Source: Psammoneis japonica (taxonomy: Eukaryota). Taken from it: a stretch of DNA of 64,000 nt. The notes under the pieces are model-generated. The model was not told where the DNA came from, ran no database searches, and saw only the letters and a program-made list of their open reading frames with translations. Position 1 is the first letter of the stretch. Each line of letters begins with the position of its first letter. Location of the stretch: positions 483,899 to 547,898 of the forward strand of contig QPGO01000035.1 of the NCBI GenBank assembly GCA_008632985.1, read 5' to 3'. The position numbers and the translations under genes are program-made. Of the stretch, positions 766 through 27,583 are shown one piece after another.

Positions 766-1547
766 CGTGTGATCGATCTTGCCTTGTGCCGAATGTGTTT
801 TCTGTTTTATTATGAGAAGCCGGAGAAGAGGAGATGGAAGTAGTCGTATTGGTTTATGTTGTTGATTGCTTTCAGGAATCGGACGCGGGATGCTGACACG
901 AAGAACACAATCGAATCTTCTTTTTGAGTTCACAAGTTTCAAATTTGATACTGATCAAACGGATCCCAAGAACGGAATCTTACTTCACCATGTTTGTCAG
1001 GATTGCCGATTACTATTGTAGAAAGAGTTGAAATATGAGAACCTTGTGAGATTTCTTTTCAGGGTTCCTGTCGTGGCAAAATGTTCTGCTCTTGTTGCAT
1101 TTATACTATCTTTGGGCTACGAATGAGATATTAAAAGTTTATCACATATAATGCACCCAAATGCGTTTGGACATATTCAGATACATATACCTAGTAAATG
1201 AACGATTTTTGGTGGGAAACTCTTATGACATTCTTCATCTCTTTAGCATTATCAAACATAATCACCATCGTAGAGTTCTACACGATATGCGGGTTTTTGT
1301 AGGTAAGTTTAAAAGACCGATTATGCGTGGTGTACAGAATTTGACATTAGACTATTTGACAACCAAACCAAATTTTATATCGTAAACGACAATGACACAA
1401 GATAAAAATATACGAGCCGTTGCAAAAAACACGGGTTGCTCTTACGAGAACAGAACACGAGACAAAAAAAGACGCGTGCGAGACATCGAAATTCGAGGCT
1501 CTGCCGCAACTGCAACCTGTTGTCAAGATGGCACAATGATGCTTAGA

Positions 1548-2176
1548 TTGAATTTGATTGAGCTCTTGCCAAGTTTTTTAGCATGTCAATCCACTGCAAG
1601 CATCTTCTTCTTGATTGCTGCTTTGTGAGCAAATCCCCCTGATGGCAGCCAGTGCAAGAGCAACAAAGAGTGCCAACTCTCTCTTTTTGCATCTAGAGCA
1701 AGGCTCTTTAATCTCTTGTTGTGAACAACCTCAATTGCAGTGCAGATGCATTCCAGCTCTGGAGGTGTTCCCTTGGTTGTGACAGAGCACACAGCAGTGC
1801 ACACACAGAACGTGTCAAAAATCACCTCTGCCAGTCTCCAACAACACGCGAGCACTTTTTTTTGTGCTTGGGTTGAATTTGATGGAGCTCTTGCCAAGTT
1901 TTTTAGCATGTCAATCCACTGCAAGCATCTTCTTCTTGATTGCTGCTTTGTGAGCAAATCTCCCTGATGGCAGCCAGTGCAAGAGCAACAAAGAGTGCCA
2001 ACTCTCTCTTTTTGCGTCGAGAGCAAGGCTTTTGAATCTCTTGTTGTCAACAACCTTCATTGCAGTGCAGAAGCACTCCAGCTCTGGGGGTGTTCCCTTG
2101 GTTGCAACAGAGCACACAGCAGTGCACACACAGAACATGTCAAAAATCACCTCTGCCAGTCTCCAACAACACGCGA
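1548..2176. repeat. Direct tandem duplication, period about 325 bp
   Basis: ttgaatttgat..gagctcttgccaag...ccagtctccaacaacacgcga occurs at about 1548-1851 and about 1873-2176. ORFs 1586..2053 and 1911..2363 have near-identical C-termini. Confidence 0.9.
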
Positions 2177-2559
2177 TCTCACTTGCGACACCTCCCTTGG
2201 TTTGTCTCAGCAGCATGCAGGCACAAATTTGCAGAGCTGACTTTTTTCTGCTGGCTCCAGCATCATAGAGATGCAACAAGAAATCATTGTTGCTTGGTGA
2301 CAACAAGAGACTGTTTGAATGCATGGCCGTCATGCACCATGGCTCCATGAGCACATTTTTCAAAGTTGCTTTTCATCAAATGGGGGCAGCCTCCACCTCC
2401 ACCTTGGCAATGCTGATGTTGCCAATGGCAACCTTCTTAGAAAAAATTCAAAGGCAGAGTTTGCCCTGACTCCCTGTGTGCACTGGAGACAAGCATGCTT
2501 GTGAGTGCATTGTGAGCCCCCCCCCCCCCCTCAGTTTAAATTTGTCGTTTCAAGCTCAT

Positions 2560-5200
2560 GATTGATGCAGCACAATGGTGTCAGGCTTTGGTGAAATGTG
2601 CCCTTTCAGCTCTGAAAAATCTCAAAGGAGCACATTTTGGAGCTCATCTCTTTTCCTCTCTCTGCCCCCAAGCCAATGTCCTTGGCTTCCATCTCTTGCA
2701 TTGCCCACCAGAAGAACGTTTTCATTTAAGGACAAGTCCAGCTTGCTTGGTTTGTCCATGGCTTTGGAATTTTGCAGTGCCAGAGTCAAGAATTTAGTTG
2801 GTGTTAGAGCAGCAGAGCTAGATCATCTTTAAGCTGGAAACCAGGATCTGAGAAATGCAATGGCACATGTTTTTTTTGTGCAACTCAACACAACAATGAT
2901 GTGTGGTTGTTTTGACAACTTTTTCCAACTTTGCAACTGTGGAAGCAGCGCTGATTGACAACATGAAGTGGGGACAACATGCATCACAAAGAAAATGGTG
3001 AGCTGTGGGGCAGCACAATTCTCACCAAGTGGGCCTGTTGCACTCCCTCAATTCAAAGGATTGTGCAGCTCTTTGATGTGTGCACCACAGAAAGTTGATG
3101 CACAAGGTTGCCAAAACAGGTGTGCATGACACAGAAAAAACATGCCTGCTGGACCAGTTTGGATGTGTGAGATTGATTGAACAGCACCGCATTTCCAAGT
3201 TGAGTGCAGGGCTGAAATGGCCCACACAAGAGATGAGGGTGCAAGACCTTCTCTGGGTTTGCATCACAGAAGCAAAGGTCCTTGTTGCTGAGAATCTTTC
3301 AATGAGAAAATCTTGTGCACCTTGGCCTGGCACTCAAGACATGCAAGGTTCCACATGATCTGGTCATGCACACAGCACCAAGATTCAGTCTTGCATGTCT
3401 CTTCAAAGACATCTTGGCTTGGCATTGCCAAGTTGCTGCCTGCTCTTCACACTCCAAGCAAACGACCTTTCTTGCCATTCACCAGCAGAGCACTGGTCTG
3501 CACAGCACACACCATGTGTTTCCATTTTGCTTGTGACACTGAGCACAAACCCAGCATTTGCTGTTCCACAGAAAGGGTGCTGGAGTCCCTCTGCCATCAA
3601 TTTTTGATGGCACACCTCTTTGTGCACAGGCGGACATGTTCATGGTGTCTTGTGTGAGTGAACATTTGTGGCTCTGGCTGAGCACTCTGTCTCATGGGTG
3701 TGGACACTGTGGTGAGCTTTGAGCATCATGCCACATGGCCAAAGTGACAAGTGGCACAACAAGCAAAGATTGTGCCTCACACTGCAACATTTCCCCATCT
3801 CATTTGCACAAACATTGTGCACACACATGTGATGTTGCCACAAGCCTCATGAAAACAAAAAACTGCAAAATGTGACAGCTGTGCACACGTCAATGTGAGG
3901 GCAACCCCGCTGGCTCTGTGCCCACTTCTTGCTTTGTCTCCACACCAGAGTTGCAACTGTGGGAGGATGCAACTGTGGGAAGAACCAACAATTGGAAAAA
4001 GGTGGCCACATGACCAGCAAGCACTCCAAATTTTGTCCAGCTTGCTGCAGCCTTTTCTGCAGGTCACTTTCTGCCAAGAAGTTCAAGCAGGCTTTGCTCA
4101 ACGCACCCTTTTGACACACACGCAGTCATCTCCAAAGCAAGGCAGTTTCTGCCCCCAACTCTTCTTCTGGTTTGACATTTTGACTGCACTTTTGCATGGC
4201 GCAGCTCTGTGCCACATGCTTGGTCAGTTCCTCCACACTGCTGCTGTGTTTGTGCTGACACATGGCATGTGCCTTGGAGTTTGAAGGCTGTTGTGAGAAT
4301 CTGTCATCTTTGGAGTGCACCAGGGAGCCCACAATGTGCTGATCAAGCTTGGATCCAGCCTTGGCCTCAGTGCTCAAGTCCCACAAATGAGATGTTGACA
4401 GCCCTTGACAAGCTGGCCACGGCCACCATTCAGGCAGACAACTTTTCTTTGTTTCTTCCTGCTTCTTGTTTTGAAAGGATCTCTGCAATGCATGGCAGCC
4501 AAGTCAGGAGGTTTGTTGTCCTTCCATGTCAGGTCCATTTCCAGTCCCAGCACATTTGTGAGCAAATCTAAAAGCTGTGCTGTGTGTTCATCTGGGTTGT
4601 TGCATCTGACCCCACCATCCTGTCAGAGACTTTTTCCAGCTGCGGATGCTGGCAGAGCAGATGTGGCCAGCATTGCCAGGCTTTTTTCAGCAGCATGCAA
4701 GTTGGAGAGACAGGATCATCATGGTGCCAATGTGGTTGTCCAGTGTCATCAGGGTTGGCACAAAAATTTGAGGATGAAAGGTTGCTCTGGATGACTTGGC
4801 TGACATTGTCATCAATGTTTGAGCACAGAGCTCCTTGGTGCCATTGTTGACTGAGAGTTCATTCAACCACAGTTGCAGAGGTGAAAGGAGCAATGAAGGA
4901 TGAGTGTGGATTGCTCTCTGTTTTTGCTGTGATCAAGAAAGGCAACAGGCAACAGGGAGGTCAAAGAGAATGTTGCAGCATCCAGACAAGTGGGAAATGC
5001 AAGAGACCTGGAAGTGCATTTGTTGAAGAGAAGATGCCTTGGATCCTCACATGGTGGATTTGGTGACACCTGACAAGCAAGTGTGCACTCATCACTGATC
5101 TTGCCAACCTTCTTTTTAGCTCACTCTTTGGAGTGAATCATCTGGTTTAGACAAGTTGCATTGTGGCACCAGGAGGCACCTGTCATGTCATGAGATCAAA
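2560..5200. mobile_element. Heavily decayed, unclassified transposon-derived sequence
   Basis: TpA/CpG-depleted composition identical to neighbouring recognisable TE remnants; only short Cys/His-rich ORFs; no motif confidently recognised. Confidence 0.35.
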
Positions 5201-5399
5201 GTTTTTGAGAGCTCAAAGGCAAACCACAGCTGCCACAGAGACCAGGACAAAGTGCGGTGAGTCATGCAGGAAAACCCAGAGGATTCCCTTTTGGTGACAC
5301 TGACTTGCTGGTTCAACATTCACTCCAAAAAGTTGCCACAAGCATGTGGTGTTTGGTGCATGTGGTGCTGACCTCCATTTGATCATCCAAAACAGGAAG

Positions 5400-6650
5400 C
5401 CTGCATCATGAGCAGCAATGGAGGCAGATTGGGTGCTGAAGGCTGAGGTGGTCAACAAAGCAGGGGTGTCAGAGGCCAGAAGTGTCTCTTGCTTCAATGA
5501 GAACAAGAAGAAGGCTGACCCCAAGAAAAGCTTCAAGCCAGAAATGAAGTTTTGTCCATCATCAATGAGCAGCAACTCATGCAGCCATGTGTTCAAAGAT
5601 GTCAAGGGAAAGATCTTCAGCCACCACATGCAGAAAGAGTGCAGTCAAGGCATTTGCCTGGCAAGGTCCTCCCCAGAAGACAATGACTGCATGACTTTCA
5701 CTGATGAGAGACCAATGCTGGAGATGGCAACAACAGCAGTGCAAGTGCCAACTGATGCTGACTGCCAGCAGTCTGTCAATGAGAGAGCTCAAGAAGAAAG
5801 GCAACTCAAACATGGGCACATGATGAAGCCACACAACTGCAATGAGAAGATGAGGAAACTCAAAGAACACAACAGTGTGGCATTTGCAGTGATCCCAGAG
5901 GACTGCAGCACCAAGCCAATGAAGCAGATTCTGCATGCACAAATGTCAGGGACAACCTGATCAAGCTGTTGAAGCTGATCCAATCACTGATGCTTGACTC
6001 CATGAGAGATTGACATCCATTCCATGCACTTGACAAGTGCCTGTTGCACATGCTGGAAGTGAAAGAACAAGAGAACGAGTCACTGAATGACCACCCATCA
6101 CAATTTAAAAATCAGAGAGATGCTGCAAATGAAGGTCTCGGCAGTGGGATGCTGGATGGATTTGTCAAGAACACCAAGCAATTCAAGAATTGTGCTGATG
6201 CAGTGGAAGAGACCAGCACATTGTCAGAAGCTGCATTTGAGACATGGACTGCATTCTTGTTTGTGGAGAACAGTGATGACCACTGCTGCAAGAGCCCATG
6301 AAAGAGCCTTGTGTGAGTCTGGGCCAAGCCAACATTGGCATTGAGTCAGATGAGATCATCCTTGACAATGGTTCTGCCCTTGGCATGGCAGCAAGCTGGA
6401 GTCCAGTGCACAATGTGTGACCAGCAAGGGTCAAGATTGACCTGTCCATGAGTGCAGGAATGGAGACTTTTGGATGCAGACTGTGCTGTGCCAGGATGGG
6501 GTGACATGAAGCTTGGATCACAGAAGGTGACAGCGAATGTCCTGAGTTTGAAGGATGCAAAGAGCAAGCACTGTCTTGTTTGTGACAACAGGGTGGCAGC
6601 TGAGTTCCGTCTGCTGGACAAGAAGTCTGGCAAGCAGGGTGTTGTCTGAT
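5400..6650 (+). mobile_element. Decayed LTR-retrotransposon gag/pol fragment (Copia/CoDi-like)
   Basis: Fragments such as DNLIKLLKLIQSLM, VKEQENESLNDHPSQFKNQRD and KVTANVLSLKDAKSKHCLVCD resemble diatom Copia gag and pre-integrase regions as I recall them; interrupted by frameshifts and stops. Confidence 0.5.
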
Positions 6651-7029
6651 CACACACACCTCCAAATTTGTGCAAGACCATGCTGGACATTTGGGGAGTT
6701 GGTTGTGGCCTTACAAAAGCATCGGCACTTCCCATTTGGTGAAAATGCCAACCAAATGCTCCTGTTGCCATGTCCAGAGAAGGAAAGTCATTAAAAACTA
6801 TGACCATTTGGTCGTTTTTAGCACCAAACAGGGCGTGCTGATGCTCGTCACAGTGTCATCATCCTTGAAGAAATGGTGATGCAACACAAGCTGCTGTTGA
6901 GGGATGGAAAGTGGAAAGGTGTTCCTGGCTGGTCAGCCCTTCTTAATGGGCCAACAAAGAAAAAAAAGAGCCTTCAAAGTCATCTTGGCTGTGTGCCACC
7001 TGTCAAAATGGAGATGGCTTTTCTCTTGT

Positions 7030-7350
7030 TGTTGTCATCAACACTTGGTTGAGCTCAATTTTGAATGACAAGAAGTGTCGGGGCCACAAGAATGGTTGTT
7101 TGTCAGACCATTGGTGACCCAGTTGAGGTTGCTGTTCTGCATGCCTTTGGCTGCAATGGTGCACTTGATGAGCCCATGCTGCGTCACCACAACAGTGCCT
7201 GTGGCGTCATTGTGCTCACGCTTGATGCCAAGCTGCTGCAATCAAAGTCTGTCAGCCTTCAAGGCACCAGCCAATCCAGACACCATGCATCCACATGAAA
7301 CAATGCGTGAAGCGGAAAGCACCAAGTTTCTCAAGGCAAACCAATGAACC
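7030..7350 (-). mobile_element. Copia reverse transcriptase fragment
   Basis: LGIKREHNDATGTVVVTQHGLIKCTIAAKGMQNSN matches the Copia RT pattern LGIxIxxxxxG.I.LTQ.GLI..II...GL. Confidence 0.55.
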
Positions 7351-7479
7351 TCAACAATCATTTTTGGCATCACAGTCTCCCTTGCATTGACCTGGAGGAA
7401 AAAAGGCTGATGGTGATCCATTGTCACCCTTGTCATCCAGCTCAGGAAGACTGATGATTGAGCAGGAAAATGTTTCTCC

Positions 7480-8620
7480 ATCCTCCTCCATCATGCTGTC
7501 TGGGACAAGATGGGACTCAATCACATGGATGACCTCATTGCTGGCTGACACATTGCCATGAATCACTGCTGGGTCCACAGAGGAGGCAGTCAGCATGGAG
7601 CTGAGAACAACAGAGTTCTTGATGACTGACATTTGAAGAAAGTGCTGTGAGTGTGCCTGAGGAACCAATGCAGCAAGCATTTGTGTTTTTGTGTGCAACC
7701 ATTGGCAGCAATGCTGCAAATGACAACAACCACAATAAAATGCATTGTGGTTGTTGAGAAGCTTGACAAACATGTCCTTGTGAGCTGGTTTGGCCAGCAT
7801 TTGCCGCATGCCTTCCGGCAGTTGTTGAATGGCACTGTTGGCAGGAGCCAAAATGGTGTGGGGGGCATCACCCACATGTTCTTCCACTGTTCTGGCAATG
7901 ATCAAGAGCTCAGTGAACATGGAAATGTCCAGCATGAAGGCCTTGGTTGGCAACAGGACTTTGTCCAGAACATGAACAATGCCACTGGATGCCATCAGAT
8001 TGGCGCAGATCACATTGGCCTGGTGGTTGATTTGCGTGGCGGGTTCAAGGCTGGTGACTTGAAGGTTTTCACCATTGCGTGCATCCACTTGCATGTCAGA
8101 TGACAGAATTGAGGCATCCAAAATGATGTGATGCAAGAGAATGCTTGCCAAGTGGGCAATGTAAATGTCACAAAAGAACTTGGCTGGGACCGCTGTGAAG
8201 GCTTCATTGCTGGGGACAAACAACATGATGGAGCCTTTTCTGACAATGGCATCAACAAGATTGGCACTCTCCAGAGAGCCTCTGCAAAGGACATGAATTG
8301 ATGTTTTTTTCACCAGTGGTGAGCTTGACAAGGGAACTGTTGGTGGCATTGAGTCTGAAAAAGCTGCCAGGTGTCGAGGTTGAAATCTTGGCACCGCTCA
8401 AATCAGCAGTTGTGCTGGTGACAGAGGATGGGGCCAGGGTGGGTGGATTGGCGGCATTCACCAAAAGCTTGGTTGGAGACATTGTTGGGCTTCCTGCTGC
8501 GCAGGCAATCTCAGTCAGCAAGTTCACAGCATTCAACACCTCAGTCAGTGAAAAGTGGGAGTTCCAGCAGCATTGGAGGCATCGGTTGGTGACAACATCT
8601 GGTGGGGCAATGATCTGACA
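7480..8620 (-). pseudogene. Fasciclin (FAS1) repeat protein pseudogene, 3' part
   Basis: FAS1 H1/H2 motifs in ORF 7351..8394: MLFVPSNEAF, ILLHHI (canonical YH), ASSGIVHVLDKVLLP, HTILAPANSAI, ASNEVIHVIESHLVP; degenerate. Confidence 0.75.
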
Positions 8621-8999
8621 TTGTGCGCAAACGCGTGCATGACAATCTTGCTTGTTGTGACAATGTGTTTTTGAATTGATGTAAAAATTCTTGCTTTGCA
8701 TGCAAAAAATCTTGGTTTTGATGTGAATTTTTTTTGTCATGCATTGCAAGAAATTTCAAACATGACAACCACACGGATGACGCACCCAACATTTTCAAGT
8801 GTAACACTCGGCCGCTTTCTCACCATGTGACAAGTCACCTTGTGACCATTCCCCGATTTGCACTGCTTTCAAATTGCGCCTTAAATGCAATGAGCACACG
8901 CATGTCTTTTCCGACAATTTTCAGTGTGACACTGTGTCACTTTTCAACGTGCGACAACTGAACTCCAGTGCACGTCCAATTCACATTCCATTCAGTTTG

Positions 9000-10660
9000 T
9001 TGCTGCTGCAGTTGTTTGAATTTACGTGGTTAATTTCATTGCTGTTGCCATGTGCTGGCAACTGCACCCCACTGGCAAACATCTCTGTTCCGCCATCTGC
9101 ATGCTTGCGCTGCCCTCTGCTGTTTCTGAGGGTTGTCATTCACTCTCCCTCCCCGAGAACCCGTTTGTGTCAAAGCACTGTTGTCAGTTGCTGCTGCTCC
9201 CAGAGCATCTTCATCTGTGTCCTCCGGGTCGTCATTCCCTCCTGTTGCCTCCTGCTTGCTGTGCTCCAATCAGTTTCTGGAGCAGCCCACCCACTCATGC
9301 TGTCCTTCTTTTTCTTCTTCCTTTTCTTCCCTCTTGCGCTCTCTAATTTCCTTGGCTGAAGGCAATGCACATCAACTCTGCCACACGTCACTCTTTCCTT
9401 TGCCACCGCATTGTAGAGTTTGTTGTGTTCTTCCATCCCATCCTGGTTCCATCCTTGATTTTGCCTGGCCCCTTTACCCTGAAATGTGTGCTTTGGGAGC
9501 ATGGGCTGTGTTGGCTGTTGCACCTCTGCTTCATTCTTGAATCTCTGTTCTTTCTCCACGATGGACATTGCTGCTTTGCAGTGGTTGTTGCACGTTGGCC
9601 TTGCAAAAGCTTCTGTGCTTGTTGTTGGCTGATTGCTGACACCTTGGGCATCTGCTGTCTTAAAGTGTTCCATTGCTGCCACAACAGAGCAGCAATTTTT
9701 CAAGAATCAGAAGTGTGTTTGCGGTTTTGCCCTGCCCTTTTTGATGTCATCAATGCTTGGCATCCATCCATGCCATGTGTCGGCACACCTGGTTGCAACA
9801 AATTCTCTGCCATGCGGTCAATGTCCGACCTGTCACAGGCCAATCTTGTTGGGTTCTTCCACAGCCCCAGAGCAAACAACAACATTGCAGCGTTGTAAGT
9901 TTCCAGCCTCTTTGCCAGGAATTTCCAATGCAATTCATGGGTGTGTGCCACAACGCTCAGCCACCTTGTCTTGTCTGCAATGGCTTCCATTGGTCATGGA
10001 CAGAGATCATTGGTGTTGCAGTGGATGTGTGTTCCTGCATCAGTGGTGTCCATCTTTGATGCATTTCGAACGCGGTCACCATCACTTTGAGCCTTGCACA
10101 GTGTCTCTCTTTCCATGCGTTCTGATGTCATCAAAGTCATCCCAGTGCCTGCATTGCAGGTCCACCATGCGCTGTGTGAAATGCAGTGCATCTCTTGCTA
10201 GAACTGGGTTGGCAATGGCAGTTTTCCTCCGTCAGGTCCTCCTCTCCTGTCAGGGTCAATGGAAGGATGCATCGCTCTGTGCCAAAAACCTTGCAGCTCT
10301 TGTGCTCTTGCATGCACTTGCTTGGCGCACCACTCAAATGTCACGGTCTTGTTTCCATTCCACCAATCTGTGGGTTGATTGTCCACAATCAACTCTTCTC
10401 TCCCAACAAACAAATCCTTGTTTCTTCACAATCTTGAGCAATCAATTCCTGGGCCAGCTGTCTGCCGCCTTGTTGTGCTCGTTAAAGGTGATGTGCTCAT
10501 GGCAACTAAGTTCATCAAATGCGTGGGCCTCGGCCGCTGCCACTTTTCCATCAAAACCTCTGGCTTCATCACCATCCATGGTTGTCAACACAGCAGATCA
10601 GACTGCAGCGTCTGTGTCAATTGCTGCCTTTTGCATCTGCACCCATTTGGGAAAGTGAGT
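9000..10660 (-). mobile_element. Decayed transposon accessory ORF (type commonly associated with diatom Plavaka-like elements)
   Basis: TTSTEAFA...PKHT...NQGWNQDGMEEHNKLYNAVAKER resembles the T.S.EAF...PKYT...GWS.EG...YN.L...V..R signature as I recall it; adjacent to the Plavaka transposase remnant. Confidence 0.5.
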
Positions 10661-13450: not shown

Positions 13451-13521
13451 GTCATGCTTGCCACGACACTTAAAAAGTCAGTCAACTCATCTGTGTTGGC
13501 CGGGTCCATGACTTTGCCAAG

Positions 13522-16603: not shown

Positions 16604-16648
16604 TCAACGACGAGTCGTCGAGTGCGAGTCGTCCCTGCCTGCTCCGAA

Positions 16649-16870: not shown

Positions 16871-19689
16871 TGTCAGAGGTCAGAGCCACAGTCCTCGCTC
16901 GCGCTTGGTGAGTTCAACGACTTCATTGAATGGTTTGGTCATCTGGCATGGATGGTGTGAAGCATGCCAATCAAACCAAAGGGTGCACGATGATGTTTCA
17001 TTGCCTGGCACAAGTGTGCACACAGACAGTGGGGACAGGGCCCGCCGTTCCCGTGCTCACAAGGCTTCGTGTTGCTGCCAACATGGTGGCTGAAACATCA
17101 CTGTGATGAAGTGTGCCTTCCAACACAACTTTCTCCACTCCTTGCACTCACATGACACAGGCATCACCATGGTGACTGCTCCTCCAAACCCCATTGAAGC
17201 TGTGTGTGAGCAGATTGGTTTTGTCGTGCCTGCTCAGCGGGCATCGATGATGGCCGATTTGCAGTCTTTCGACAATGCAGCTGACCTCAAGGAGGGCAGT
17301 GTCAACTTCCTGGCATCCTTGCATGCAAGAAGGACAGTGGCTGAAGGGTGTTTCCATTTTGGATTTGCCCACACCCATTGTCTCAAGGCACTGATCCACA
17401 TTGTTTCCAAGACTTCCAGTGGTGTTGGCGAGACTCCAACTCTTGCGGGTTTGGACCAAGTGTCATTCCATGATGTGCTGCAAGCAGCTCTCAGTCAGGC
17501 CAAGATTTGCGTCCAGCAGAAAGAGCAGGCAGATTCTCTGGCTCAAGAGGCTTCTCTTGAACTCTCAAAAAACAAGAAACAGTGGCCTGAGTGGAGCACT
17601 GCTCTCAAGAACTTGTTGGGCACCATGCCAGGCGTGAATGGTGTGCCACTGATTTACGTGATCCAGGACAACAACAACCCAGACCCTGACGGGCATGCAA
17701 CTTTTGTCCAGAAGTGCGCTGCTTGTGCTCCTTTGGACAGACACCAGTCTTTGAAGCCAATGCTTGCACTGTCAATCAGTTGATCGTTTCCTTCACAAAA
17801 GGAGCAGCCCGTGAACAGTGGACAAAGGAGGATCATCTCCTCCAAAACTGTTGTGTTGACCATTGCAATCTGGAGGACCATTGCCAGGATGAAGGCAATG
17901 CCACCCGTCACATCTCAGAAGCTGAGAGGTTGGAAACCACTCTCTTCCACAGCAAAGAATGTTCTCTGACTTTTGAGGTGTTCATCAACAAGCTCCAGGA
18001 AATGTTCGACATCTTTGAGGAGAATGATGAACCCAAGACTGACACTCAGAAGTTGTGCATTCTGTTTGAGAAGACGCAGCACCAACAACTTCAGGCAACC
18101 ATTGAGACCTTCAAGGTGCAGAACAAGTTTGGAGGAGGCATCACATTTGCAACCATGGCCAACCATCTTGCTGCCAAGGTTGTGACCTTGCCGGAGACGA
18201 TGTCACACTGTTGTGTGATTTCATCAGTTGCTTCTGGTGAAGGCAGTGATCCCAGCATCTGTGACCCTGATTGTTCCATTGACACTGGGCTCCACAAGAA
18301 TTGGAGTGACTTGAGTGCAGAGGACAAGAAGAAGGTTGCAGATGAGCATGTGCATCTCCAGGTCTCAAGAAGAAACCTGGGAACCCCAAACGATGTGCTG
18401 CATTGGTCAAGTTGCTGAAGAAGAAGAACCAGAAGCTGTCATTACAGCTGACACTGGCAAACCAGAAGATTGCAGCTCTGAGTGTGCCAATCCAACTGGC
18501 TCTGGTTCCAGCGAGGGCAATGAAGGGGCTGACAGACAGCACCAAGGTGACAGTGGTGGAAACAATGCTGGAAATGTGTTTGGGGGATGCAACGAAAAAC
18601 AGGACAAGTGTGGCGGTGGTTGCAACTGACTGGTGTGCTGGGCCTTGCTCTCTAGCATCATCCAGTGTGCTTTGTGGATTGCACAATGGGGTGGGGGGCA
18701 GCATTGCCAACATGTTTGCCGATGCATTGGGGAGATTGCCGCTTCACCCAGGCACGTCTCAGCAGCACATACAAAGCAACAAGGCACCCACATGCGTCAG
18801 AATGACCAGGCAAAGCATGGGCAATTAGAGTTGGACTTGCATGCTGACACTGCTGTTTTTGGTCAGAATTGTTCCCTCTCAGGTTGTTCTAGATGCAAAT
18901 GTGATGTGTCACCTTGCAATGATGAGTGCGCCTCACTGCACCATGCAGAGAAAGGATCTGGACCCGCGCTGGTCTGGAATTTGGCAAGTGGTGAGGTTGC
19001 ATCATGCTTGTGGTCAGAGCTCTCTGTCCCACCAAATGTGCCACCACCTCAAGGCAAGTGTGTGTCCACACATCCTTTTGTTGACGCTTGCCATGCTGGG
19101 AATGTTGCAGACCATCACAGCCACACAGGTGTCTTGATCTTCTTGTGTTGGGCCCCAATTGTCTGGCACTCAAAGCATCAGAATGTGGTGGAGGCTGGCA
19201 CATTTGGTGCAAAGATGATGGCTCTCAAGACTGCTGTTGAGCCAATTGAGGCCCCAAGGTGCAAGCTTTGGATGTTTGGGGTTCCCATTGAAGGCTCTGC
19301 AAACATTTTCTGTGACAGTGAAGCTGCACACAAGAATTGTTCCATTTTTAAATCGACCCTGAAGAAGAAGCACCATTTGATCGTGCATCATTGCAATCAT
19401 GAAGCAGTGGTGGCTGGGACAGTTGGGATTGCAAAAGAAGATGTGGAGACAAACTCTCTGATCTGTTCACCAAGGTCATGACATCCATTTGACAAAAAAT
19501 TTTGTTGGACAAGTTCACTTGTTGTTTGGTGATTTGACAGTTGTCCGTGTGCATGCCCAGGGCGGTGGTGATGTTTTCCCCCAGTGTGGGTTGACACCAT
19601 GTCCAAGGTTTGGGTTTCATTTCACATTGACTGAATTGTCTCTCTCAAGCTGGACCACAGCTTGCCAGGAACACTTCAAGGGGACCAAA

Positions 19690-19925
19690 TGAAAGTGGCA
19701 GTGCGGCACCATGTTTTGTGGATTGGTGTGCCGTGCCAGTCATTGCAGGTCATTTGTGACATGTTGTCAGAGAGAAACTTTTCTGCGGCACTCCGGGAAC
19801 TTGTTGTGATCACTTGTTGCATGATTGAGTTGTGACAGGCCTGTTGAAGCATTCCATTGATTGTTGCATTGCATCCTGCAGGCACTGTGAGCAGCTGAGC
19901 CATTTGGCAGCAGGATTTGTTTGCC
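19690..19925 (+). repeat. 3' LTR of the Copia remnant
   Basis: Starts TG directly after the purine tract; homologous to 16649-16870. The right boundary and TSD were not resolved. Confidence 0.8.
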
Positions 19926-20999
19926 TGTGAGAAAATGCAGCTAGTTGTTTCTACATCCAGGTTTGTGAACCCAAACTTGGGTTCACTTCTGGTGAGACTT
20001 GGCTGGAACATTGAAGAACAGTCCAGCTGGCACCAAGCAGGGGAAAACTCCACCGCTTGTCAGGAGGCTTGGGTCATTTCGCCATTGTGTGACTGTGCAA
20101 TCATGTTTTGAAGATCTGTTGACCCCCCGCCCAGCATGAAATGGGTCCGATTCGGCACTCAACAGCTGTTTGATGCACTCTCAACCACAGTGCCCAAGCA
20201 GTTTCATTGCTGAAAATTCTGACAAGACTGATCTTTGTTGAGAACAGTTCTGGTGGTCAGCCAGCAGCATTTTAATGACCATGAAGAACCTTTTCTGTCA
20301 TCAAGTGCTTGCTCTTGTGGAGCTGGTTTGTTGACAGCCTTGCTGCATTGGAGCCAAGTGATGGTGGTGAAGAAGATGATGATGATGAAGACAACCACAA
20401 TGACTTCAACAAAATTCCAGAACATGCCGGTGCAGCTGTGCTTCAAGCTTGCAAACTTTAGAGACTTTGGAGACATTGCATCATGCGTTGTTGTTGTCAC
20501 CCTGCTTGGTCTTCCTTTTTTTCTTCTTGGGCAGTGGACTGTCATCTTCTGTGTCAACTGAACAGCTTTCAACAACCATGGCACTGATGATGCTTTGCCC
20601 TGTCATGGGAATTCTCTGAATCTCCCAAGAGCTCCATCACTTGGGCCAGCTTTCCATTGCAGTTCTTCTCATGCTTCACAAGGAACCTCTGCAAGAAGCC
20701 AGTGTGGCAAGCGTCAATGCTGCGCTGTTGTCATTTGCTGGTTCTGCCATTGCCATCTCCATGGTGCCTGCTTGCTCTCTCCTGCTGAACAACTCTGTGT
20801 TCACTTGTTGGCTGTCATCAAAAAGCAAAAACCAAGAAAGGACCCATCAGTTCCAGGAGTTTGGTTGAGTCACACCACAAGTGTTGTTTGCAGCAACTCA
20901 TCACAACTTCCAGCTGCTGTGACTGTGGCAGAGGCCTGTGTCTTGCTTGCAGGAAGTCTCACCCTCAGTCATCAGGGTGGCATTGTTGCTTGTTTCCCC

Positions 21000-23900
21000 C
21001 AATGCGGATGGCCCTTGGTGCTGCAGTCCCACGAAGCCTGCACTGGGTTTGAATGATGGTCTTTCCACAGACAGATCAGGCACAGGAATGGAGAGTCCAT
21101 GACTTGCAGAGGAATGGTGGGCCCTTTCATCAAGGAGAACTTGAATGAAAACATCTTGCTGTGGCTTGGGTGTTGCACTCACAATCCATGCTGGAATGCA
21201 GGGAGCAAAATCCTTTCTCCCTCAAAGAGCTCCACAATCACACCTGTCTGTCTTTGCTGCATCACCTTTTGCTCCCTGCCAGGTTGGCTTGTGGCAAAGA
21301 TGCCCAACTCTGCAGCAAGAACCCAGAGATTTTGGTGATTTGGAAGCCCAGTTGCTTCTTCCGCAAGATTCTTGATGTCTTCTGCTGGTGCCTTTCCCAC
21401 AGTGCAGGCTGCCTTGCAATGAAGCTGCTTTTCTGTTTTCCATTTGTGGTGCTTTTTCTCAAAGTGTGCGAAGGTCAACCTTGCATGCTTGGAGTGAATG
21501 ATGTGCCCACAGCCTTTGCACTTTGGTGGATGACCCTGCTTCTTGCTTTGTGGTTTGAACTCCAAGCTCACTTTCTTGAAAATTTTGGCACCCTGCCTTG
21601 GCTGGGGAAGGAGCATTTGGCTCCAATGTGGCCCCATGTTTGACAGCTTCTCTCTCATGTTTGATGGTGACTGTCCTGGTTGTGCCTTCCTCATCCATTT
21701 CATGGACAGCAACAATGGCTTCTTGCCCTGCTGTGTGAGCCAGCACTTGGCACTCATCTTTCTCTGAAAAGAAATGCAGCAGATTGCTTTTGTCACATCT
21801 GTCATAAAAAATCCACCCTTTGCCAGCATGCAGCTTGATGCAGCAAGTGAAGTGCACATTGTTTTGTGTGTTGATGGTTCCCTGCAGCAGCCCTTTTCTG
21901 CCTCCAAAGCTGATGGACTTTGGGGCAGTTGACAAGTCAGAGGTTGGACCTTTTGCTGGTCCATGACACACCAACAAATGAGGGCACCTCACAACTCTTT
22001 TTTCCAATGACCACACAGTGTTGCCAGCAAAGATGAGTCAGTCTCTCAGTTGAGGAGCTGCAGGTCATTTGGAGACATCTCATTGCCACCACCTTCCAGA
22101 CATGCACCGGTGTCCTCTCCCATTGTCCTGTGAAGTGTCTCTTGCAGGTGAGAGAGGTCATTGATGCACTCCAAAGTGGCACGGGTTTCTGTCACAGTGG
22201 TTGGCTCTGCATTTGGGCACCAATGTTTTCCACCAGCACACAGCCACTCAAACTTGAGCTCCACCTCAAATGATGCAAAGAGAATGGGTGGCCAAAAAGC
22301 ACCACAATTGATGGGCCAAACATGTCAAACGTTTTGGCATGTGTGCTGCTCCTCACCTCTGTGCAATCCATGCAAGGCAGTGCTGTTGGATCAGCAACCC
22401 AAAGGTGACAAGCATTGTCATGCCTCCCAACCTTCATGAGATCCACAGTTCTTACAAACAAGTGGTCAGGCTGCTGAAGCTCAGCCATTTGCCTGTTCAG
22501 CAGACCAAGGTGGTCAAGGCCTCCAAAAAGAATGATGAAGCTGTCCACAGGGCACATGTTGGTGATTCCTCTGCATGAGGGGGTGCCCTTCACACCCCAC
22601 CTTGGTGGGTCAAACATCCTGGCCAACACAGCATTGGGGTCATCATCATGGTAGAAGTCTGTCACTGATGTTTGCACAGATGTCTTGTTTGACCTTGTTG
22701 AGTGCTTCTTTTTTGGAAGATTGTTGTGCATGCTTGAGCAACTTGTCTGATGTGTCAGGAGCTCTCCCATCATTGGGAACTTGCACTTCTTGGACTTTTT
22801 CCTGGGCTTGTTGCAGCCACTCTGAGCACTCCTGTGTGTGCCATGGCAAGTGGCAATGCCTGCCTGCACTGCCTTCCTGTTGTGTTGATCAGAGTTGCAG
22901 AACTTCCATGCATGAAGAAGTGTTTCTCCAACCATCATTTTCCCCTGACGGTGCTTGTTTGAAAGAGTTTTCCAACATTTTTTTTAGCATTGGTGTCATC
23001 ACAAAGGCTTTCACTCTTTTGGGCTTGCCTTTCATTCAGATTTTTGCAAGCATGAAGAAAAACGGTGGCTTGTTTTGGATCAAGGTGCCACTTGAGCCAA
23101 GAGAACCGGCATTCGGGAAGCACTTGAAAAACATTTTGCAGCAATGCTCCAGCTTTTTGTGCTGTCCTTGGGAAAATGATCCATCTCATCAACCTGGCAG
23201 TTGAACTTGCCCTCCAATTCAGCAGAGACAACACCTCTGTTGTGCACAACTCTTGCGCCAGATCTCTCAAAGTGAGCGCTGCAAATCCTGCAAAGGTGGT
23301 TTGTTTCTTCATCTGCAACCTTTGATTTGTCAAACTTTTCTTTTGCAAATGCTTTCATGGCAGCAAAAAAAAAAACCATTCCAAATGGCATCTGACAAGT
23401 CACTGGCATTGCCATGAAACTCCTCTGCAAACTGTGGCCATGACGCAGCTCTGTGGTGCACCTGAGCACAGCCTGCCAGCGCACTTTGTAGTGGGCTGTT
23501 GTTTTCCCAATCAGAATGCTGATGCAAAGAGGGGTCCACATTTGCAGGGTGAGGTCAAACCCTGAGGTGAGCGTGATGTTAATTTCACCTTGGAAGTCCA
23601 GATCAAACACAAAACCTTCCACAGAGTCTGTTTGCAGGGGGCTGCAGCCTTCTTTCAACAGCTCAATCATGCCATCATTTTGCACAATGATGTGTTGTTT
23701 TCTGTGGTGAGTTGCTCACTTTGAATGAAGGAGCTGCCAATGTCATTTCTGAAGTTTGCCAGCTTTGCAATTGAGGGTCAATCAGACAGAGGCTTCAGGG
23801 CCTTTTTGAGCAAACAAGTCACTCTGTCCAAGTTGAGCAATGCTGGGTGCAGCTTTGAAACTGGTGCCCTGGTTGGGTTGCCAACCCTGAGCTGTGATGG

Positions 23901-26700
23901 AAATGCCTCTGAAGTCAAATGGACAAGGTTGTCAAACTCAATTTGTGCTTGATGTGTCAACTTGGTGGGCAGGGGCCTGGGTTGTTTGTGTGTTCCTTTG
24001 TGCTGCACAAGCCAAGCAAAGCCTCCTGTGTTTGTGAAGGTCATTGTGCAGGTGCAAGGAATGTGCTCCATTGGTGGTGGCTTGTCCTCTGGGTCACTGG
24101 GACAGTTGGTGCACACACCAGCTTTGATGGCATGGGAGCCATGAACTTCTTTTTTCCACCCTGTGGCTGGTGGGGCCTTTTAACAAAAAGGCTGCAACTT
24201 GTGCAAATGTGGACACCCATGCAGTGTTTGCAAATTGTCTTTTTGTTGCCGCGCTCAACACAAGAGTGGACTCCCATTGCCCAGCCAACACCCAGGCAGC
24301 AGCCTGGCAAGCCTCCTGCAACAGACCACAATTGAGAGAAGTTGTTGGGAAACTTGGGCAAGCCCCCATCCATGTCTGACAAGCCAGGGACAAAGGCAGC
24401 AGAGATGGATCTGTGTCTGAAGGGCCAGATGGAGCTTTGTCTGAGAACATGGGGAAGCTTTTGGCAGGGGATTGAGCCTGTCCCAGTGATTGGGTGCTTT
24501 TCCTGCCAATGGATGACGGTGACAGCTGTGACACCTGAGCTCTGTGGGCCTCAGACTGGTGGCTAGAGTTGGACACCTTTTGCAAAAAGCTGGCTTGAGC
24601 TGGAGCAGGCCAAGGTCTGTCAAGGTCAGGAGGCTCAAGATTGGCACTGGCTGCATTGTTCAATGTCAAAAGCATGTCTCTTTGGTGCTGCTCAAACTCC
24701 ATCCTCTTGAGCAAAAGCTTGGGCTGCACAAACTGAGCAAGTGGCCTTGCTGTGTTGGGGGGGGGGGGGGAGTGAGCCCATCCTCTGGCTTGCTTTCTGG
24801 GGTGCTCATGGCTCAGTTGATGGTGTTTTTTAGAAGTGACAACTTTGTTGAACAAGCTGGACTTGAGATTGTCTGCCAAAATTAAAAATTGGGCCGCCAC
24901 GTCTGGCAGGTGGGACAGACTTCCTTTTGCAAAAATGCAAAGAACAGAAAGAAGCAGCAAAGTCAAGATGGAACTTGCCACAAAGTGCTTTGCACTGGGC
25001 TCAGATCTGAACAAAAAACTTTCTCAGGCTTTTGGGGAAGGACCCTGCACAGGAGAGGAGCAGGGGAATTTTTCTTTCCTTGCTCTGAGAAAAGTTTCTT
25101 GAAGCAGAAATGAGCCCACTTTTTTTGTGGTTTTCTCCAACCAGCGCAAGTGCTCTGAGCACAATGAATTGATGGCTTCACCAACAGCAAAGAAAAAGTG
25201 AGGACAGTGAGGTGACACTGTTTCTCCACACAAAAGCTGCACCAGATTCCTGTGGAAACAATTTTCTGGACAAAAATTTGTTGGCACAACAGAAAAGCAA
25301 ATGCTGTTGAATTCTTTGTGTCACCAGAATTTCTGGTGAGTTTTGGTGAAGAGCAGAAAGAAGAAGAGGAAGAGTTGGTTGCGGAAGAAATGAAGCAACT
25401 GTTGGTCGGCGTTGATTTGCCATTTTGGTGTTTTGTGGTTCAGCATCATGTGAAAAGGCGTGGATTGAATGCTCAGTGCAGAAATCCACATGGTCAGTGC
25501 TGGGGACATCCACGGGATTGAACAGAGAAACTGCTTTTGAATTTTGGTTGCACGGACATTGGCAAAAAACGTCGTGCTGTGCACTTTTCCCTTTTCTGAC
25601 ATCAACTTGGCTGTCATTTTCATTGGGGGGGGGGGGGGCAACAGAAATTGGGTGAAAAAGTGTGCCAGGGCAGTGCAAATTGGCAAAACAGAGTGTCAGC
25701 AAGTGTGCCACCCTTGTGTTTTTGTCAAGTGTGTTGCCACAAGTGAGCGAGTGCATGTGACCCGGGTGCAGTTTGTGCAGAGCCCAGGTGAAGGCATGGT
25801 GCACCAAACACTCGTCACAAAAAATTTGTTCTGCTCCTTGGTCTCCAATCTGTGCCCCGAACAAGAAATGTTGCATGGTTCTGCATGATGTTGACTTTTT
25901 CCACACAAAACCTGTGCACTGTTTGAGTGCAAAATGTCGACGTTCCTCTTTGCCAGCAACTTCAGGAGAATGACTCAGCTTGACACATTTGGACCCACAG
26001 ACATTTGGCTTTGATGCTCATGAAGCAGTGCACATGGCCCTGATGACAAAACCCATGCACAATGCAAAACTTTGAATGGGACAGAAAATTCTGGAAATTG
26101 TTGCCAAAAGTCACAATTCGATGGTGTCTGCATGCTTCCCTGGCAAGGCATGCATGTGTCCTTCACTTTTTTGCACCCTGTTTGTTGCTTGCCCTGTGGT
26201 CCATTCAGATGTGTCGCATCATCCAGGTTTGCACGGCACAGCACAGATCTCTTCAAAAGCAGTGTCCAAACTGCAGGTCCAAACTCTGTCCGAGGGCTTG
26301 CAATGCCATTGGACAAAACTGTCACAGTCAAAAAAGCTCATGTTTGTTGTCAGTGTTCATTTGAGCAGAAGAGTGAAGAGTTCCGTCATTTGTTTTTTTG
26401 TTTTGGTTTTCTTCACAATTTTAAAAATTTTGTTGGGCCAACCCAAGCCAAGCAAAAAAAGAAAATGAAAAAGATGAAATGGCTCGAAAAGCTCGAACTT
26501 GCCCGGATTTTCACCCTCAACTCTTTTGCACGCAACTCGGCCGAAACAAAAAAGAGTCCGACTCTTTTTTCACAAACCCAGAAGCGTGAAAAAAGAGAAA
26601 AGAGTGATGTGGGCCCCACATGCTGTCACACATTTCGCACATGTGTCTTGGTTTGCACAGGACACCAGCAAAGCAAACCAAAGTTCGCCTCACGCACCAC
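21000..26700 (-). mobile_element. Decayed Mutator-like (MULE) DNA transposon with a GCM-like Cys/His domain
   Basis: CKHCMGVHICTSCSLFVKRP...MEHIPCTCTM...HKGTHKQPRP (GCM-like) at ~24.0-24.3 kb; TSGFDLTLQMWTPLCISILIGKTTAHYK and DDTNAKKNVG (MULE core-like) at 23.0-23.6 kb. Boundaries are approximate. Confidence 0.55.
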
Positions 26701-27583
26701 ATCATCAAGTCACACTGGTGGTCTGTGATTGTTTTTGACGACTTCTTTCAATGTCATGACTGCAGACGCAACACCAATTGACAATTTGAAGCAGGTGTGA
26801 CATGTCTCTTGAAGGAATTGGTGAAGCACGCAGCAGTTCTTCTGCAGCAGACCTTTTGTTTCAAATGGTGTTTTCGGTCTTGATGTGCATCACAGAAAGT
26901 CAACACATGAAGTCCCTAAAGTGGATCTGCGTGACACAGAAGCAGCCACGCCAACCAATTTAGATGTGACTCATTCAACAGCGCCATTCTCATGTTGTTT
27001 GATTTTAGATTGGGGGCTCAAAATGGCCCGAGAAGTGTGCAAAAACTTTCCACTTGACAACCACTCAAGTCATCCCATGAGCCTGTTGCATTTGCACTGA
27101 ACAAAAAAAGAAACAGCACCCACAGACTAGAAAAATGTGGAGGTTCTAACGGTGTTCTTATTTTTTCTGTGGTTGTGGGCAGTCATCTTCACTCATTGTC
27201 GTGTGAGGCCTCTCGCTTTGCTTGGCATCAGCATGCCCAAGACACCCGGATATTTTCAATTTAGCTTTTTAATTTTCTCACCAACCAGGCCTGCGGGAGG
27301 CATTGACCACTTGTCTTTCTTTGTGGGTGTGGGTGTGTGCATGCCGTTGCATGCTGCATTGCCTGTACGTACGTAGGGCCCTACCGCCGGGGCCGGTATT
27401 GTAGTATGTGGCGGCTGAGTGGCGTGGCCACCGCACCGGTGACGCGGATGACCGTTATATTTGATGTCTCATGCCATTTTTGGGGCTGTAGCGAGGTGCA
27501 CGGACACTCTTTTTTTCCAATTTATCGCCATAATAGCGCATCGCACAAACTCACTTATTGTTCGATATGTTTTCCCCAATAGG

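Follow-up and report, generated by a model that had tools for sequence, protein, structure and literature searches.

The closest described system is that of the chlorarachniophyte Bigelowiella natans, in which integrated NCLDV and virophage DNA undergoes A/T>G/C hypermutation at TpA only, and for which an ADAT2-like deaminase has been proposed (Mettrop et al., bioRxiv 10.64898/2026.01.13.699255, 2026). According to the available part of this preprint, two integrated viral regions acquired 231 new mutations, at about 1000x the background rate; 230 of these were A>G/T>C, each at a TpA. A sequence-only reading of the diatom DNA analysed here had called such a process undescribed, a claim that the B. 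natans work overtakes; for diatoms, our literature search found no report of TpA hypermutation. The locus also bears a likeness to fungal RIP, by which saturating, context-specific transitions ruin repeated or invasive DNA of ascomycetes in place, with spill-over into single-copy neighbours, and to APOBEC3 (retroviral cDNA) and ADAR (dsRNA) of animals, which edit invading nucleic acids in a context-specific manner. A further likeness is with 5hmU/base J of dinoflagellates and kinetoplastids, described in the available part of PMC11572971 as a SAR-lineage DNA modification, a mark of TEs with a preference for the T of TA steps.

The window, that is the whole 64-kb stretch of Psammoneis japonica DNA analysed, contains five blocks (Table 1). 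Pooled over 27,805 bp (27.8 kb), their observed/expected ratio (o/e) was 0.05 for TpA and 0.24 for CpG, versus 0.58 and 0.99 in the neighbouring genes, which bears out the earlier description of TA-poor, TG/CA-saturated blocks beside normal genes. The 60-bp line 5401-5460, said to be free of TA and CG, was re-counted and contains neither. Within individual blocks, per-kb and 250-bp counts gave o/e ranges of 0.00-0.13 for TpA, 0.02-0.5 for CpG and 1.6-2.1 for TG/CA; the genes flanking them ranged from 0.5 to 0.8 for TpA and from 0.8 to 1.2 for CpG.

Compared with 34,395 bp of the window outside them, the blocks had lost TA (3.7 versus 38.5 per kb) and CG (14.2 versus 57.8 per kb) and gained TG+CA (223.7 versus 144.8 per kb). 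The gain of 78.9 per kb balances the losses of 34.8 TA and 43.6 CG, and neither the total of YpR steps (241.6 versus 241.1 per kb) nor the GC content (0.483 versus 0.484) was changed. AA, TT, AT and the other A/T-containing dinucleotides were almost the same inside and outside, and TC o/e was 0.95 versus 1.07. The 102 TA seen, where about 1,070 were expected from the outside density, rule out chance. The longest runs without TA measured 1739, 1539, 1496 and 1346 bp, and the stop triplets TAA and TAG fell to 1.8 and 1.2 per kb, versus 7.9 and 8.6 outside.

Table 1. Coordinates of the depleted blocks and of the features recognised in or next to them (run X1, public sequencing run).
Feature	Position in window	Strand	Basis or remark
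Block 1, TA/CG-depleted island	1445..13975	.	composition, borders
Block 1, single-copy parts	2335-5002, 7004-8337	.	run X1 depth
Block 1, multi-copy parts	5003-7003, 8338-13673	.	run X1 depth
Fasciclin-domain gene remnant, single-copy, TA-free	7354..8397	-	PF02469, E 5e-27; X1 depth 69-80
Second fasciclin fragment, profile positions 2-40	13525..13815	-	E 3e-7
Spill-over zone, end of otherwise normal 445-bp repeat unit adjoining block 2	16390..16607	+	three-copy alignment
Block 2, TA/CG-depleted island with copia remnant	16551..27250	.	composition, borders
Direct repeat, left copy, possible 5' LTR remnant	16655..16870	+	79% identical to 19694-19926
Short match to N-terminal region of copia-type polyprotein (P0214 residues 121-185)	17550..17729	+	tblastn E 3e-8
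Ty1/copia Pol C-terminal (RNase H) part, hypermutated	19023..19457	+	residues 132-276 of ORF 18630-19478
Direct repeat, right copy, possible 3' LTR remnant	19694..19926	+	paired with 16655..16870
Block 3, 1-kb TA/CG-depleted island	32505..33512	.	TA o/e 0.04, CG o/e 0.09
Block 4, TA-depleted island	47037..50349	.	composition, borders
Block 5, short TA-depleted island	58150..58850	.	TA o/e 0.08, CG o/e 0.33

The blocks had been described as TE-derived. One copia Pol remnant and a multi-copy read depth agree with this; the lack of other TE protein matches and the equal mutation of a single-copy fasciclin remnant do not. Among about 320 block ORFs, no match to transposase, RT or integrase Pfam domains was found, the only matches above cut-off being to fasciclin, and most of the 27.8 kb is without recognisable TE protein. 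The two fasciclin pieces lie 5 kb apart with multi-copy DNA between them, and the larger one keeps a 348-codon open frame with 2 Tyr left. Some 70 ORFs of at least 110 aa are found within these 28 kb of dead DNA; TA-free DNA offers only TGA as a stop, which calls for caution in gene prediction.

For the copia Pol remnant, 2893 relatives were found with E<=1e-3 (best E 1e-40). All five long relatives tested carry RVT_2, and one of them also rve. No block ORF matched either domain, so the element at 16.65-19.93 kb has no RT or integrase of its own, and tblastn with 21 long relatives recovered only 18990-19454 and the short piece 17550-17729, the protein matched by the latter (P0214) having its RVT_2 further downstream. 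Judged from these matches, the element is an internally deleted remnant. It has on both sides a direct repeat of about 215 bp; between the two copies there are 8 adjacent TG/CA swaps, and 7 sites are CG in one copy and TG/CA in the other.

Direction of change was examined with neighbouring genes and foreign copia relatives as proxies for the ancestral composition, true homologues giving polarity over only about 0.45 kb. In a protein alignment of 117 of the 150 relatives listed, the copia remnant was identical to the consensus in 65 of 103 conserved columns. All three consensus-Tyr columns read H, C and H (codons CAC, TGC and CAT), and six consensus-Arg columns read H, H, H, H, Q and W. Relative to 76 of 80 intact metagenome relatives, three of three majority-TA sites read CA, TG and CA, and five of seven majority-CG sites read CA or TG. 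The 80 intact relatives themselves have a normal TA o/e of 0.47-1.05 (lowest 1-kb window, 0.32). In the repeat unit adjoining block 2, private ATA/GTA>ACA/GCA changes were present at 16390, 16504, 16572 and 16574, together with CG>CA at 16526, and both sister copies agree on TA at the four T>C sites. These alignments show the signature and its direction, from TA to TG/CA. The divergence of the direct repeats and the private changes in the 445-bp unit likewise show that the loss of TpA acted in place, after insertion. The earlier proposal of a second transition process (T>C or A>G at TpA), distinct from 5mC deamination, is thus upheld by the YpR balance, the Tyr columns and the private changes. 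Only one TA/TG difference was present among those listed between the assembly and run X1.

Loss of TA depended strongly on the adjacent bases. Counts in the blocks versus outside were 2 versus 414 for RTAY, 19 versus 348 for RTAR, 19 versus 344 for YTAY and 62 versus 222 for YTAR. Deep inside the blocks, the numbers seen and expected were 1/212, 7/178, 6/176 and 23/114, respectively, which corresponds to a survival of 0.5% for RTAY, about 4% for RTAR and YTAY, and 20% for YTAR. In the R_R context, CA gained 16.0 per kb versus 5.5 for TG, and in the Y_Y context TG gained 13.5 versus 5.3 for CA. The ratio (RCAR+YTGY)/(RTGR+YCAY) was 1.47 in the blocks, 1.10 outside (Fisher p 3.5e-8) and 1.05 in copia relatives. 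A>G at 5'-TAY is therefore the targeted change, which reads as T>C at RTA on the opposite strand; this rule is new here. Strand choice in RTAR and YTAY is near 100% if CpG decay is presumed strand-symmetric, and about 75% from survival ratios alone. At the 3' neighbour, T was preferred at least as much as C (0.18 TAT and 0.58 TAC per kb left). The preference of TadA is for UAC, with which this pattern agrees only in part. Both strands were equally affected, and no strand-coordinated runs of TG versus CA were left in the blocks (autocorrelation near 0), which lends no support to a processive single-strand enzyme.

Borders of the blocks are sharp, lying within about 100 bp by composition, and the TA-free zone extends beyond the CG-poor zone; at the left edge of block 2, DNA is TA-free from 16551 and CG-poor only from about 16733. 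Single-copy stretches (run X1 depth 57-80) were depleted as much as multi-copy ones, with the proviso that old copies may have diverged past the 80% threshold. Where blocks 1 and 2 are single-copy, contigs of run X1 match them with 1-6 differences per 0.9-2.4 kb, at a depth of about 58-68, equal to that of the neighbouring gene; as this run comes from a single sample, perhaps the very one that was assembled, the agreement is not independent support. Depletion looks regional and not tied to sequence copies, and the earlier term "repeat-targeted" does not fully fit, given the sharp borders, the spill-over into the flank and the affected single-copy stretches.

TpA loss is separable from CpG loss and can run without it. 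In the right part of block 4 (48500-50250), TA o/e was 0.08 while most CpG was kept (o/e 0.68), and two database proteins (P0193 and P0280) have His or Cys in Tyr columns with Arg retained. The CpG half of the signature has the features of 5mC decay: CpG>TpG/CpA change is seen in the CG deficit, in the Arg>His/Gln/Trp replacements and in CpG polymorphisms relative to run X1, 10 of the 22 differences listed inside blocks being CpG versus TpG/CpA. It would be the expected decay of methylated CpG, methylation being presumed here, and the DNMT5-type CG methylation of diatom TEs (PMC9998398, in the part available) explains this half. Such decay cannot remove TpA, the loss of which is faster, wider and present where CpG is kept.

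A fairly probable overall reading is that the blocks are islands of silent repeats decaying within a diatom chromosome, and that two separate DNA-level transition processes have rewritten them in place. Between them, the islands would hold multi-copy DNA, one or more Ty1/copia elements with internal deletions, and a host fasciclin gene that insertions have broken up. One process would turn CpG into TpG/CpA through decay of methylated CpG; the other, much faster, would be a near-complete TpA>TpG/CpA hypermutation aimed at 5'-TAY-3' (A>G), that is 5'-RTA-3' (T>C). RTAY sites, attacked on both strands, would disappear first and resolve either way, RTAR would mostly become RCAR and YTAY become YTGY, with YTAR a poor target. 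The aim would be a chromatin domain rather than sequence copies, single-copy DNA within the island included, the hypermutation overshooting the CpG-poor zone by 200-300 bp and halting about 100 bp or less from genes that look expressed. All TAY (Tyr) codons would be erased along with the stops TAA and TAG, so that proteins would be crippled by missense, with no added stops.

The process is very probably of the same kind as the TpA-only hypermutation of B. natans, and we think it somewhat likelier to be enzymatic and guided by silent chromatin than not. Our leading guess for the enzyme, still a tentative one, is an adenine deaminase of ADAT2/TadA type that would act on DNA at T-A-Y. It is more speculative still that a chromatin-guided A-to-G editor at 5'-TAY in silent invading DNA is common to diatoms and chlorarachniophytes, perhaps to SAR protists generally, erasing all Tyr codons, TATA-like signals and TAA/TAG stops within short evolutionary time, independently of cytosine methylation and faster than it.

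An unlikely but coherent alternative is that thymine is the modified base, a TET/JBP-type enzyme oxidising the T of R-T-A to 5hmU or 5fU in silent chromatin, with mispairing to G leading to T>C. 5fU mispairs with G. The context rule reads equally well with the T of R-T-A as the target. Dinoflagellates, which also belong to SAR, have TET/JBP-made 5hmU that silences TEs and replaces T preferentially in TA and TC (PMC11572971, in the part available); however, TC steps were not lost in the blocks, and our literature search found no report of 5hmU in diatoms. Still less probable is that no dedicated enzyme acts and that compact chromatin biases repair or replication: T:G or A:C mispairs might, for example, be corrected one-sidedly at TpA, a flexible step, or repeats might undergo GC-biased conversion. 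The regional pattern, the equality of strands and the excess of transitions in all four directions among run X1 repeat-copy differences (822 versus 354 transversions) would suit such a bias, but the effect is about 95% complete, obeys a strict trinucleotide rule, has borders within 100 bp and is accompanied by no other AT>GC drift. That single-copy DNA is affected further argues against conversion among repeats.

It is very improbable that retrotransposon transcripts were hyperedited (A-to-I) at the RNA level and the changes fixed via reverse transcription before integration. ADARs prefer a 3' G and are not known outside animals; here a 3' pyrimidine is favoured and strands are equally affected. 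A retrotransposon remnant is indeed present in block 2, and ADARs typically have a 5' U beside the edited A (bioRxiv 10.64898/2026.01.13.699255, in the part available). Nevertheless, changes were not limited to retro-copied sequence: the direct repeats diverged at YpR sites after insertion, and the host fasciclin remnant and the neighbouring repeat flank are also mutated, so that in-place change contradicts this scheme. Scarcely credible, finally, is that there is no mutation footprint, the blocks having been born TA/CG-poor through foreign word bias or selection, or being a sequencing or assembly artefact, to which the possible identity of run X1 with the assembly source lends something. This is already contradicted by the equal YpR total and GC content, the conversion of Tyr and Arg codons in a Pol that can still be recognised and whose relatives have normal TA, the polarised spill-over into a repeat with normal sister copies, and the normal genes on the same contigs.

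If the main reading is true, the TpA hypermutation of Bigelowiella is not one alga's curiosity but a long-running force shaping the chromosomes of diatoms, which are major primary producers, and the match with an unrelated alga suggests a widespread genome defence. The trinucleotide rule, the saturation, the regional reach and the independence from CpG decay give handles for the enzyme hunt, since candidates can be compared on TAY versus TAR. They should also aid the dating of insertions and the annotation of diatom repeats, as hypermutated TEs are left with no Tyr, acquire long spurious ORFs and evade Pfam. A shared SAR editor, if real, would be a naturally occurring adenine editor that treats both DNA strands alike, and would add a new arm to the genome defences of eukaryotes.

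Among the known systems, APOBEC makes C>T changes in TC/CC contexts and ADAR acts on RNA, whereas here chromosomal DNA is changed on both strands at T-A-Y. 5hmU/base J is an epigenetic mark without known mutational footprint. Fungal RIP converts CpA to TpA, raises TpA, lowers GC and makes TAA/TAG stops; the blocks have instead lost TpA and such stops at constant GC. RIP itself is rejected by the TpA o/e of 0.05 and the unchanged GC, the opposite of C>T at CpA, and the TpA process is its mirror image. The likeness to B. natans, as described in the available part of the preprint, is closer. There too, only TpA>TpG/CpA changes affect A:T pairs, GC-ward and against the genome's usual bias; here this was found in the dinucleotide balance, three of three Tyr columns, three of three TA sites and four private TA>CA changes. 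There too, the targets are silent, well-delimited stretches that stem from TEs or foreign DNA, TpA-poor clusters rich in CpA+TpG that include RT/DDE genes; here discrete regions lie among normal host genes, though most of their DNA is without TE protein and a fasciclin remnant is included. The hosts differ, a diatom (Stramenopiles) and a chlorarachniophyte (Rhizaria). Over 27.8 kb, the diatom footprint is saturated (TA o/e 0.05), versus a TA o/e of 0.45 in the B. natans NCLDV region, and it coincides with, yet is separable from, CpG decay and affects single-copy host DNA, unlike in B. natans. The words "trinucleotide" and "flanking" do not occur in the available part of the preprint, to which the diatom locus adds a TAY/RTA target with predictable strand outcome, saturation, a regional, chromatin-like reach with sharp borders beside live genes and independence from CpG decay.

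Dinucleotide observed/expected ratios (o/e) per kb and raw counts per 250 bp delimited five blocks depleted in TA and CG. In the pooled blocks (27,805 bp) versus trimmed non-block sequence (34,395 bp), TA was 3.7 versus 38.5 per kb (o/e 0.05 versus 0.58), CG was 14.2 versus 57.8 per kb (o/e 0.24 versus 0.99) and TG+CA was 223.7 versus 144.8 per kb. These values confirm the depletion claimed in the sequence-only reading, and its example, 5401–5460, contains neither dinucleotide. The longest TA-free runs measured 1739, 1539, 1496 and 1346 bp. Block borders are sharp: on the left of block 1, TA goes from dense to sparse after 1443, and on its right no TA is found in 13690–13973 and TA is dense from 14004, 130 bp from the stop codon of a Fic gene. 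Where blocks 1 and 2 are single-copy, they were recovered in contigs of X1, a public sequencing run that may be the assembly's own sample, with 1–6 differences per 0.9–2.4 kb and at the depth of the adjacent Fic gene (58–68), which argues against a local assembly artefact. Coverage by a second run, X2, is limited to 13.7–17.0 kb.

Features of the window (block borders are taken from individual TA and CG positions)
Feature	Position	Strand	Remarks
Block 1	~1445–13975		
Block 2	~16551–27250		
Block 3	~32505–33512		
Block 4	~47037–50349		
Block 5	~58150–58850		
Fasciclin-domain frame	7354–8397	-	348 codons; E 5e-27; single-copy stretch
Second fasciclin fragment	13525–13815	-	parted from the first by multi-copy DNA
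Pol remnant ORF	18630–19478	+	
Direct repeats flanking the Pol remnant	16655–16870 and 19694–19926		79% identical
445-bp unit, three copies	15337–16607		inverted and direct order; 93% alike
341-codon open frame	9633–10655	+	multi-copy block DNA

The SHMT gene at 53.6–55.0 kb places the host among the diatoms: it has best matches of 70–80% identity, and among the matches listed those with a named source are all from diatoms (for example Helicotheca, Seminavis and Cylindrotheca; 75–79%). A stretch at 42000–44500 is GC-rich (0.59 versus 0.48 elsewhere). Long ORFs overlap there on both strands, and the one at 43155–44468 (+) has a PDZ domain. A 312-bp tandem duplication (1540–2176, 94.5% identical) lies on block 1's left edge; at TTAG/TTAA sites its border-side copy retains TA and its inner copy reads TG.

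The gain of TG+CA in the blocks (78.9 per kb) equals the loss of TA (34.8) plus that of CG (43.6). YpR steps totalled 241.6 per kb in the blocks versus 241.1 outside, and GC content was 0.483 versus 0.484. Such totals are exactly what TA>TG/CA and CG>TG/CA transitions predict, so that their preservation points to a mutation footprint. Sequence born TA-poor would have no reason to keep its YpR and GC totals, and this origin was rejected. No strand-coordinated runs or clusters of TG versus CA are left in the blocks.

Because transitions never alter purine or pyrimidine class, the class (R or Y) of the bases flanking each step is a fixed record. The number of TA steps in blocks and outside was 2 and 414 for RTAY (survival 0.6%), 19 and 348 for RTAR (7%), 19 and 344 for YTAY (7%), and 62 and 222 for YTAR (35%). 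For the blocks' deep parts alone (17.7 kb), observed over expected TA was 1/212 for RTAY, 7/178 for RTAR, 6/176 for YTAY and 23/114 for YTAR. There the square of the mixed-class survival (0.0014) is near the survival of the two symmetric classes multiplied together (0.0009), which fits a separate hazard on each strand that is high at TAY but low at TAR. The products in R_R and Y_Y contexts agree with this per-strand reading: gains per kb were 16.0 for CA and only 5.5 for TG in R_R, and 13.5 for TG and 5.3 for CA in Y_Y. The ratio (RCAR+YTGY)/(RTGR+YCAY) was 1948/1328 in the blocks; outside it was 1403/1279 (Fisher p 3.5e-8), and the copia relatives described below gave 1.05. Assuming strand-symmetric CpG decay, TA loss in RTAR and YTAY is nearly all TAY>TGY; from the hazard ratio by itself the share is about 75%. 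TAT was depleted no less than TAC (0.18 per kb remaining from 11.2, and 0.58 from 10.7). Genes outside the blocks showed no TAY deficit, RTAY being the commonest class there.

The direction of change was read from an ORF in block 2, whose residues 132–276 have 2893 relatives (E<=1e-3, best 1e-40). The match falls at the C-terminus (140 residues) of proteins 1,280–1,430 aa long, and RVT_2 was found in all five long relatives scanned, one of which also has rve. This identifies the ORF as the RNase H end of a Ty1/copia Pol. An alignment with the 117 of 150 listed relatives having an HSP of at least 110 aa gave 103 conserved columns, 65 of them identical. Tyr is absent from the ORF, which has His (CAC), Cys (TGC) and His (CAT) at the three columns where the consensus is Tyr. 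At six columns with consensus Arg it has four His, one Gln (CAA) and one Trp (TGG). Other mismatches are compatible with GTA>GCA, CTA>CCA and GCG>GTG, the ancestral codons being inferred. At the DNA level, comparison with 76 of 80 intact copia relatives from metagenomes showed that all three majority-TA sites are converted in the window (CA, TG, CA) and that five of seven majority-CG sites are CA or TG. TA o/e in the 80 relatives, which are the best of a metagenome scan favouring intact copies and so give no gauge of the signature's frequency elsewhere, ranged from 0.47 to 1.05, with a lowest 1-kb window of 0.32. Intact members of the lineage, all from other organisms, are thus not TA-poor. 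The proposal, made from the sequence alone, of a second, TpA-directed process is supported.

The repeats of block 2 and its border record where the change took place. The direct repeats flanking the Pol remnant, which may be leftovers of the element's LTRs, differ at eight sites with TG in one copy and CA in the other, which requires that an ancestral TA or CG was resolved separately in the two copies. CG is retained in one copy at seven sites, and other substitutions number only five; extensions of this alignment were spurious, consisting mostly of transversions. The 445-bp unit is multi-copy in X1 (depth 330–525), yet its TA and CG are normal except in the last 220 bp, beside block 2, so that repetition alone is insufficient for hypermutation. 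The copy adjoining block 2 carries T>C changes of its own (16390, 16504, 16572 and 16574), all ATA/GTA>ACA/GCA with TA kept in both sister copies, as well as one private CG>CA. Judging from these copies, the TpA change took place in situ, after insertion. Outside the spill-over zone, the inverted and direct repeats at 15.3–16.6 kb have diverged in an ordinary way (12 transitions/12 transversions; 12/11).

TpA loss is faster than, and separable from, CpG loss, since the TA-free zone extends 200–300 bp past the CG-poor zone at 13.8–14.0 kb and 16.55–16.73 kb, and since at 48.5–50.25 kb TA o/e is 0.08 yet CG o/e is 0.68. CG methylation of transposable elements (TEs) by DNMT5 is established in diatoms (PMC9998398). 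CpG decay in the blocks looks ongoing. Among 22 listed differences between assembly and X1 (2700–21000, all in blocks 1 and 2), 19 were transitions, 10 were CpG versus TpG/CpA and one was TA versus TG. A 2.5-kb X1 contig over the Fic gene had only two differences.

X1 depth indicated multi-copy DNA at 5003–7003 (400–1480), 8338–13673 (185–1120; 174 in the last bin, 13007–13673) and 17676–19676 (up to 370), and single-copy DNA at 2335–5002 and 7004–8337. The two fasciclin pieces suggest that a host gene would first have been broken by insertions and then mutated together with them. The eight protein relatives of the fasciclin ORF are all distant (at most 34% identity); the YH-box Tyr is His in the window, but also His in one natural relative, which makes this column weak. 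In Pfam searches of about 320 block ORFs (251 of 55–109 aa and about 70 of at least 110 aa), no transposase, reverse transcriptase or integrase was matched; beyond 28.5 kb, 85 of 91 ORFs of at least 110 aa were scanned, the other six all lying outside blocks. Sub-threshold matches of block ORFs to DUF7828 and GP4 were discounted. A tblastn search with 21 long copia relatives recovered the Pol end and, besides it, just one short N-terminal piece (17550–17729). The description of the blocks as TE-derived is therefore demonstrated for no more than part of their DNA. The 341-codon frame has 29 Cys, 15 His and no Tyr, and no Pfam match. It exceeds chance length even with TGA as sole stop, and could be what hypermutation has left of some element's coding sequence.

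The same mark was found in three of the best 150 of the 2893 Pol relatives (P0193, P0182 and P0255). In pairwise alignments, P0193 had 228 His and 183 Cys opposite the Tyr of homologues, with Arg kept 890 times, and P0182 had 208 Cys there; P0255 showed Tyr>His plus Arg>Gln/His/Trp. Tyr was kept in the control relatives P0130, P0132 and P0135. P0280, an 85% relative of P0193, differs from it by two His/Cys swaps; both come from JGI metagenome contigs, and the named relatives in their search are from the diatom Fragilaria crotonensis. In all four copia-derived ORFs, P0193, P0280, P0182 and P0255, nearly all Tyr had turned to His/Cys. Arg is kept in P0193 and P0280, a TpA signature without CpG decay at the protein level. 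To judge from these proteins, public sequence from elsewhere also carries the TpA signature, in some cases with no CpG loss.

As to the cause, our leading guess, held tentatively, is a DNA adenine deaminase acting on T-A-Y, as a candidate activity only. Thymine oxidation ranks below it and seems unlikely. This model is kept alive by dinoflagellates, where a TET/JBP enzyme produces 5hmU that acts in TE silencing, with a preference for TA and TC steps (PMC11572971). Repair bias is more improbable still.

The process strips all Tyr codons as well as TAA and TAG (1.8 and 1.2 per kb in blocks versus 7.9 and 8.6 outside) and leaves TGA as the sole stop (25.7 versus 18.1 per kb). Old frames, such as that of fasciclin, consequently remain open, and many false long ORFs arise on both strands. 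This is the opposite of RIP, inactivation here being by missense change. The process can no longer be presented as a candidate undescribed system, given TpA-only hypermutation in Bigelowiella natans. According to a preprint on that alga, 231 of 302 nuclear mutations in mutation-accumulation lines lay in an integrated NCLDV and a virophage. Of these 231, 230 were A>G or T>C, every one at TpA, with a rate of about 6e-7 per site per generation and some 1000x background; 124 TpA-poor, CpA+TpG-rich clusters were also reported and an ADAT2-like deaminase proposed (bioRxiv 10.64898/2026.01.13.699255). The terms "diatom", "trinucleotide" and "flanking" are absent from that text, and no description of TpA hypermutation in diatoms was found in full-text searches, whose coverage leaves out most subscription journals. 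The TAY/RTA target, regional reach, post-insertion action and separability from CpG decay are supported additions to the original idea. With the B. natans precedent, the process in the window is probably of a kind described in 2026, here in a new lineage.
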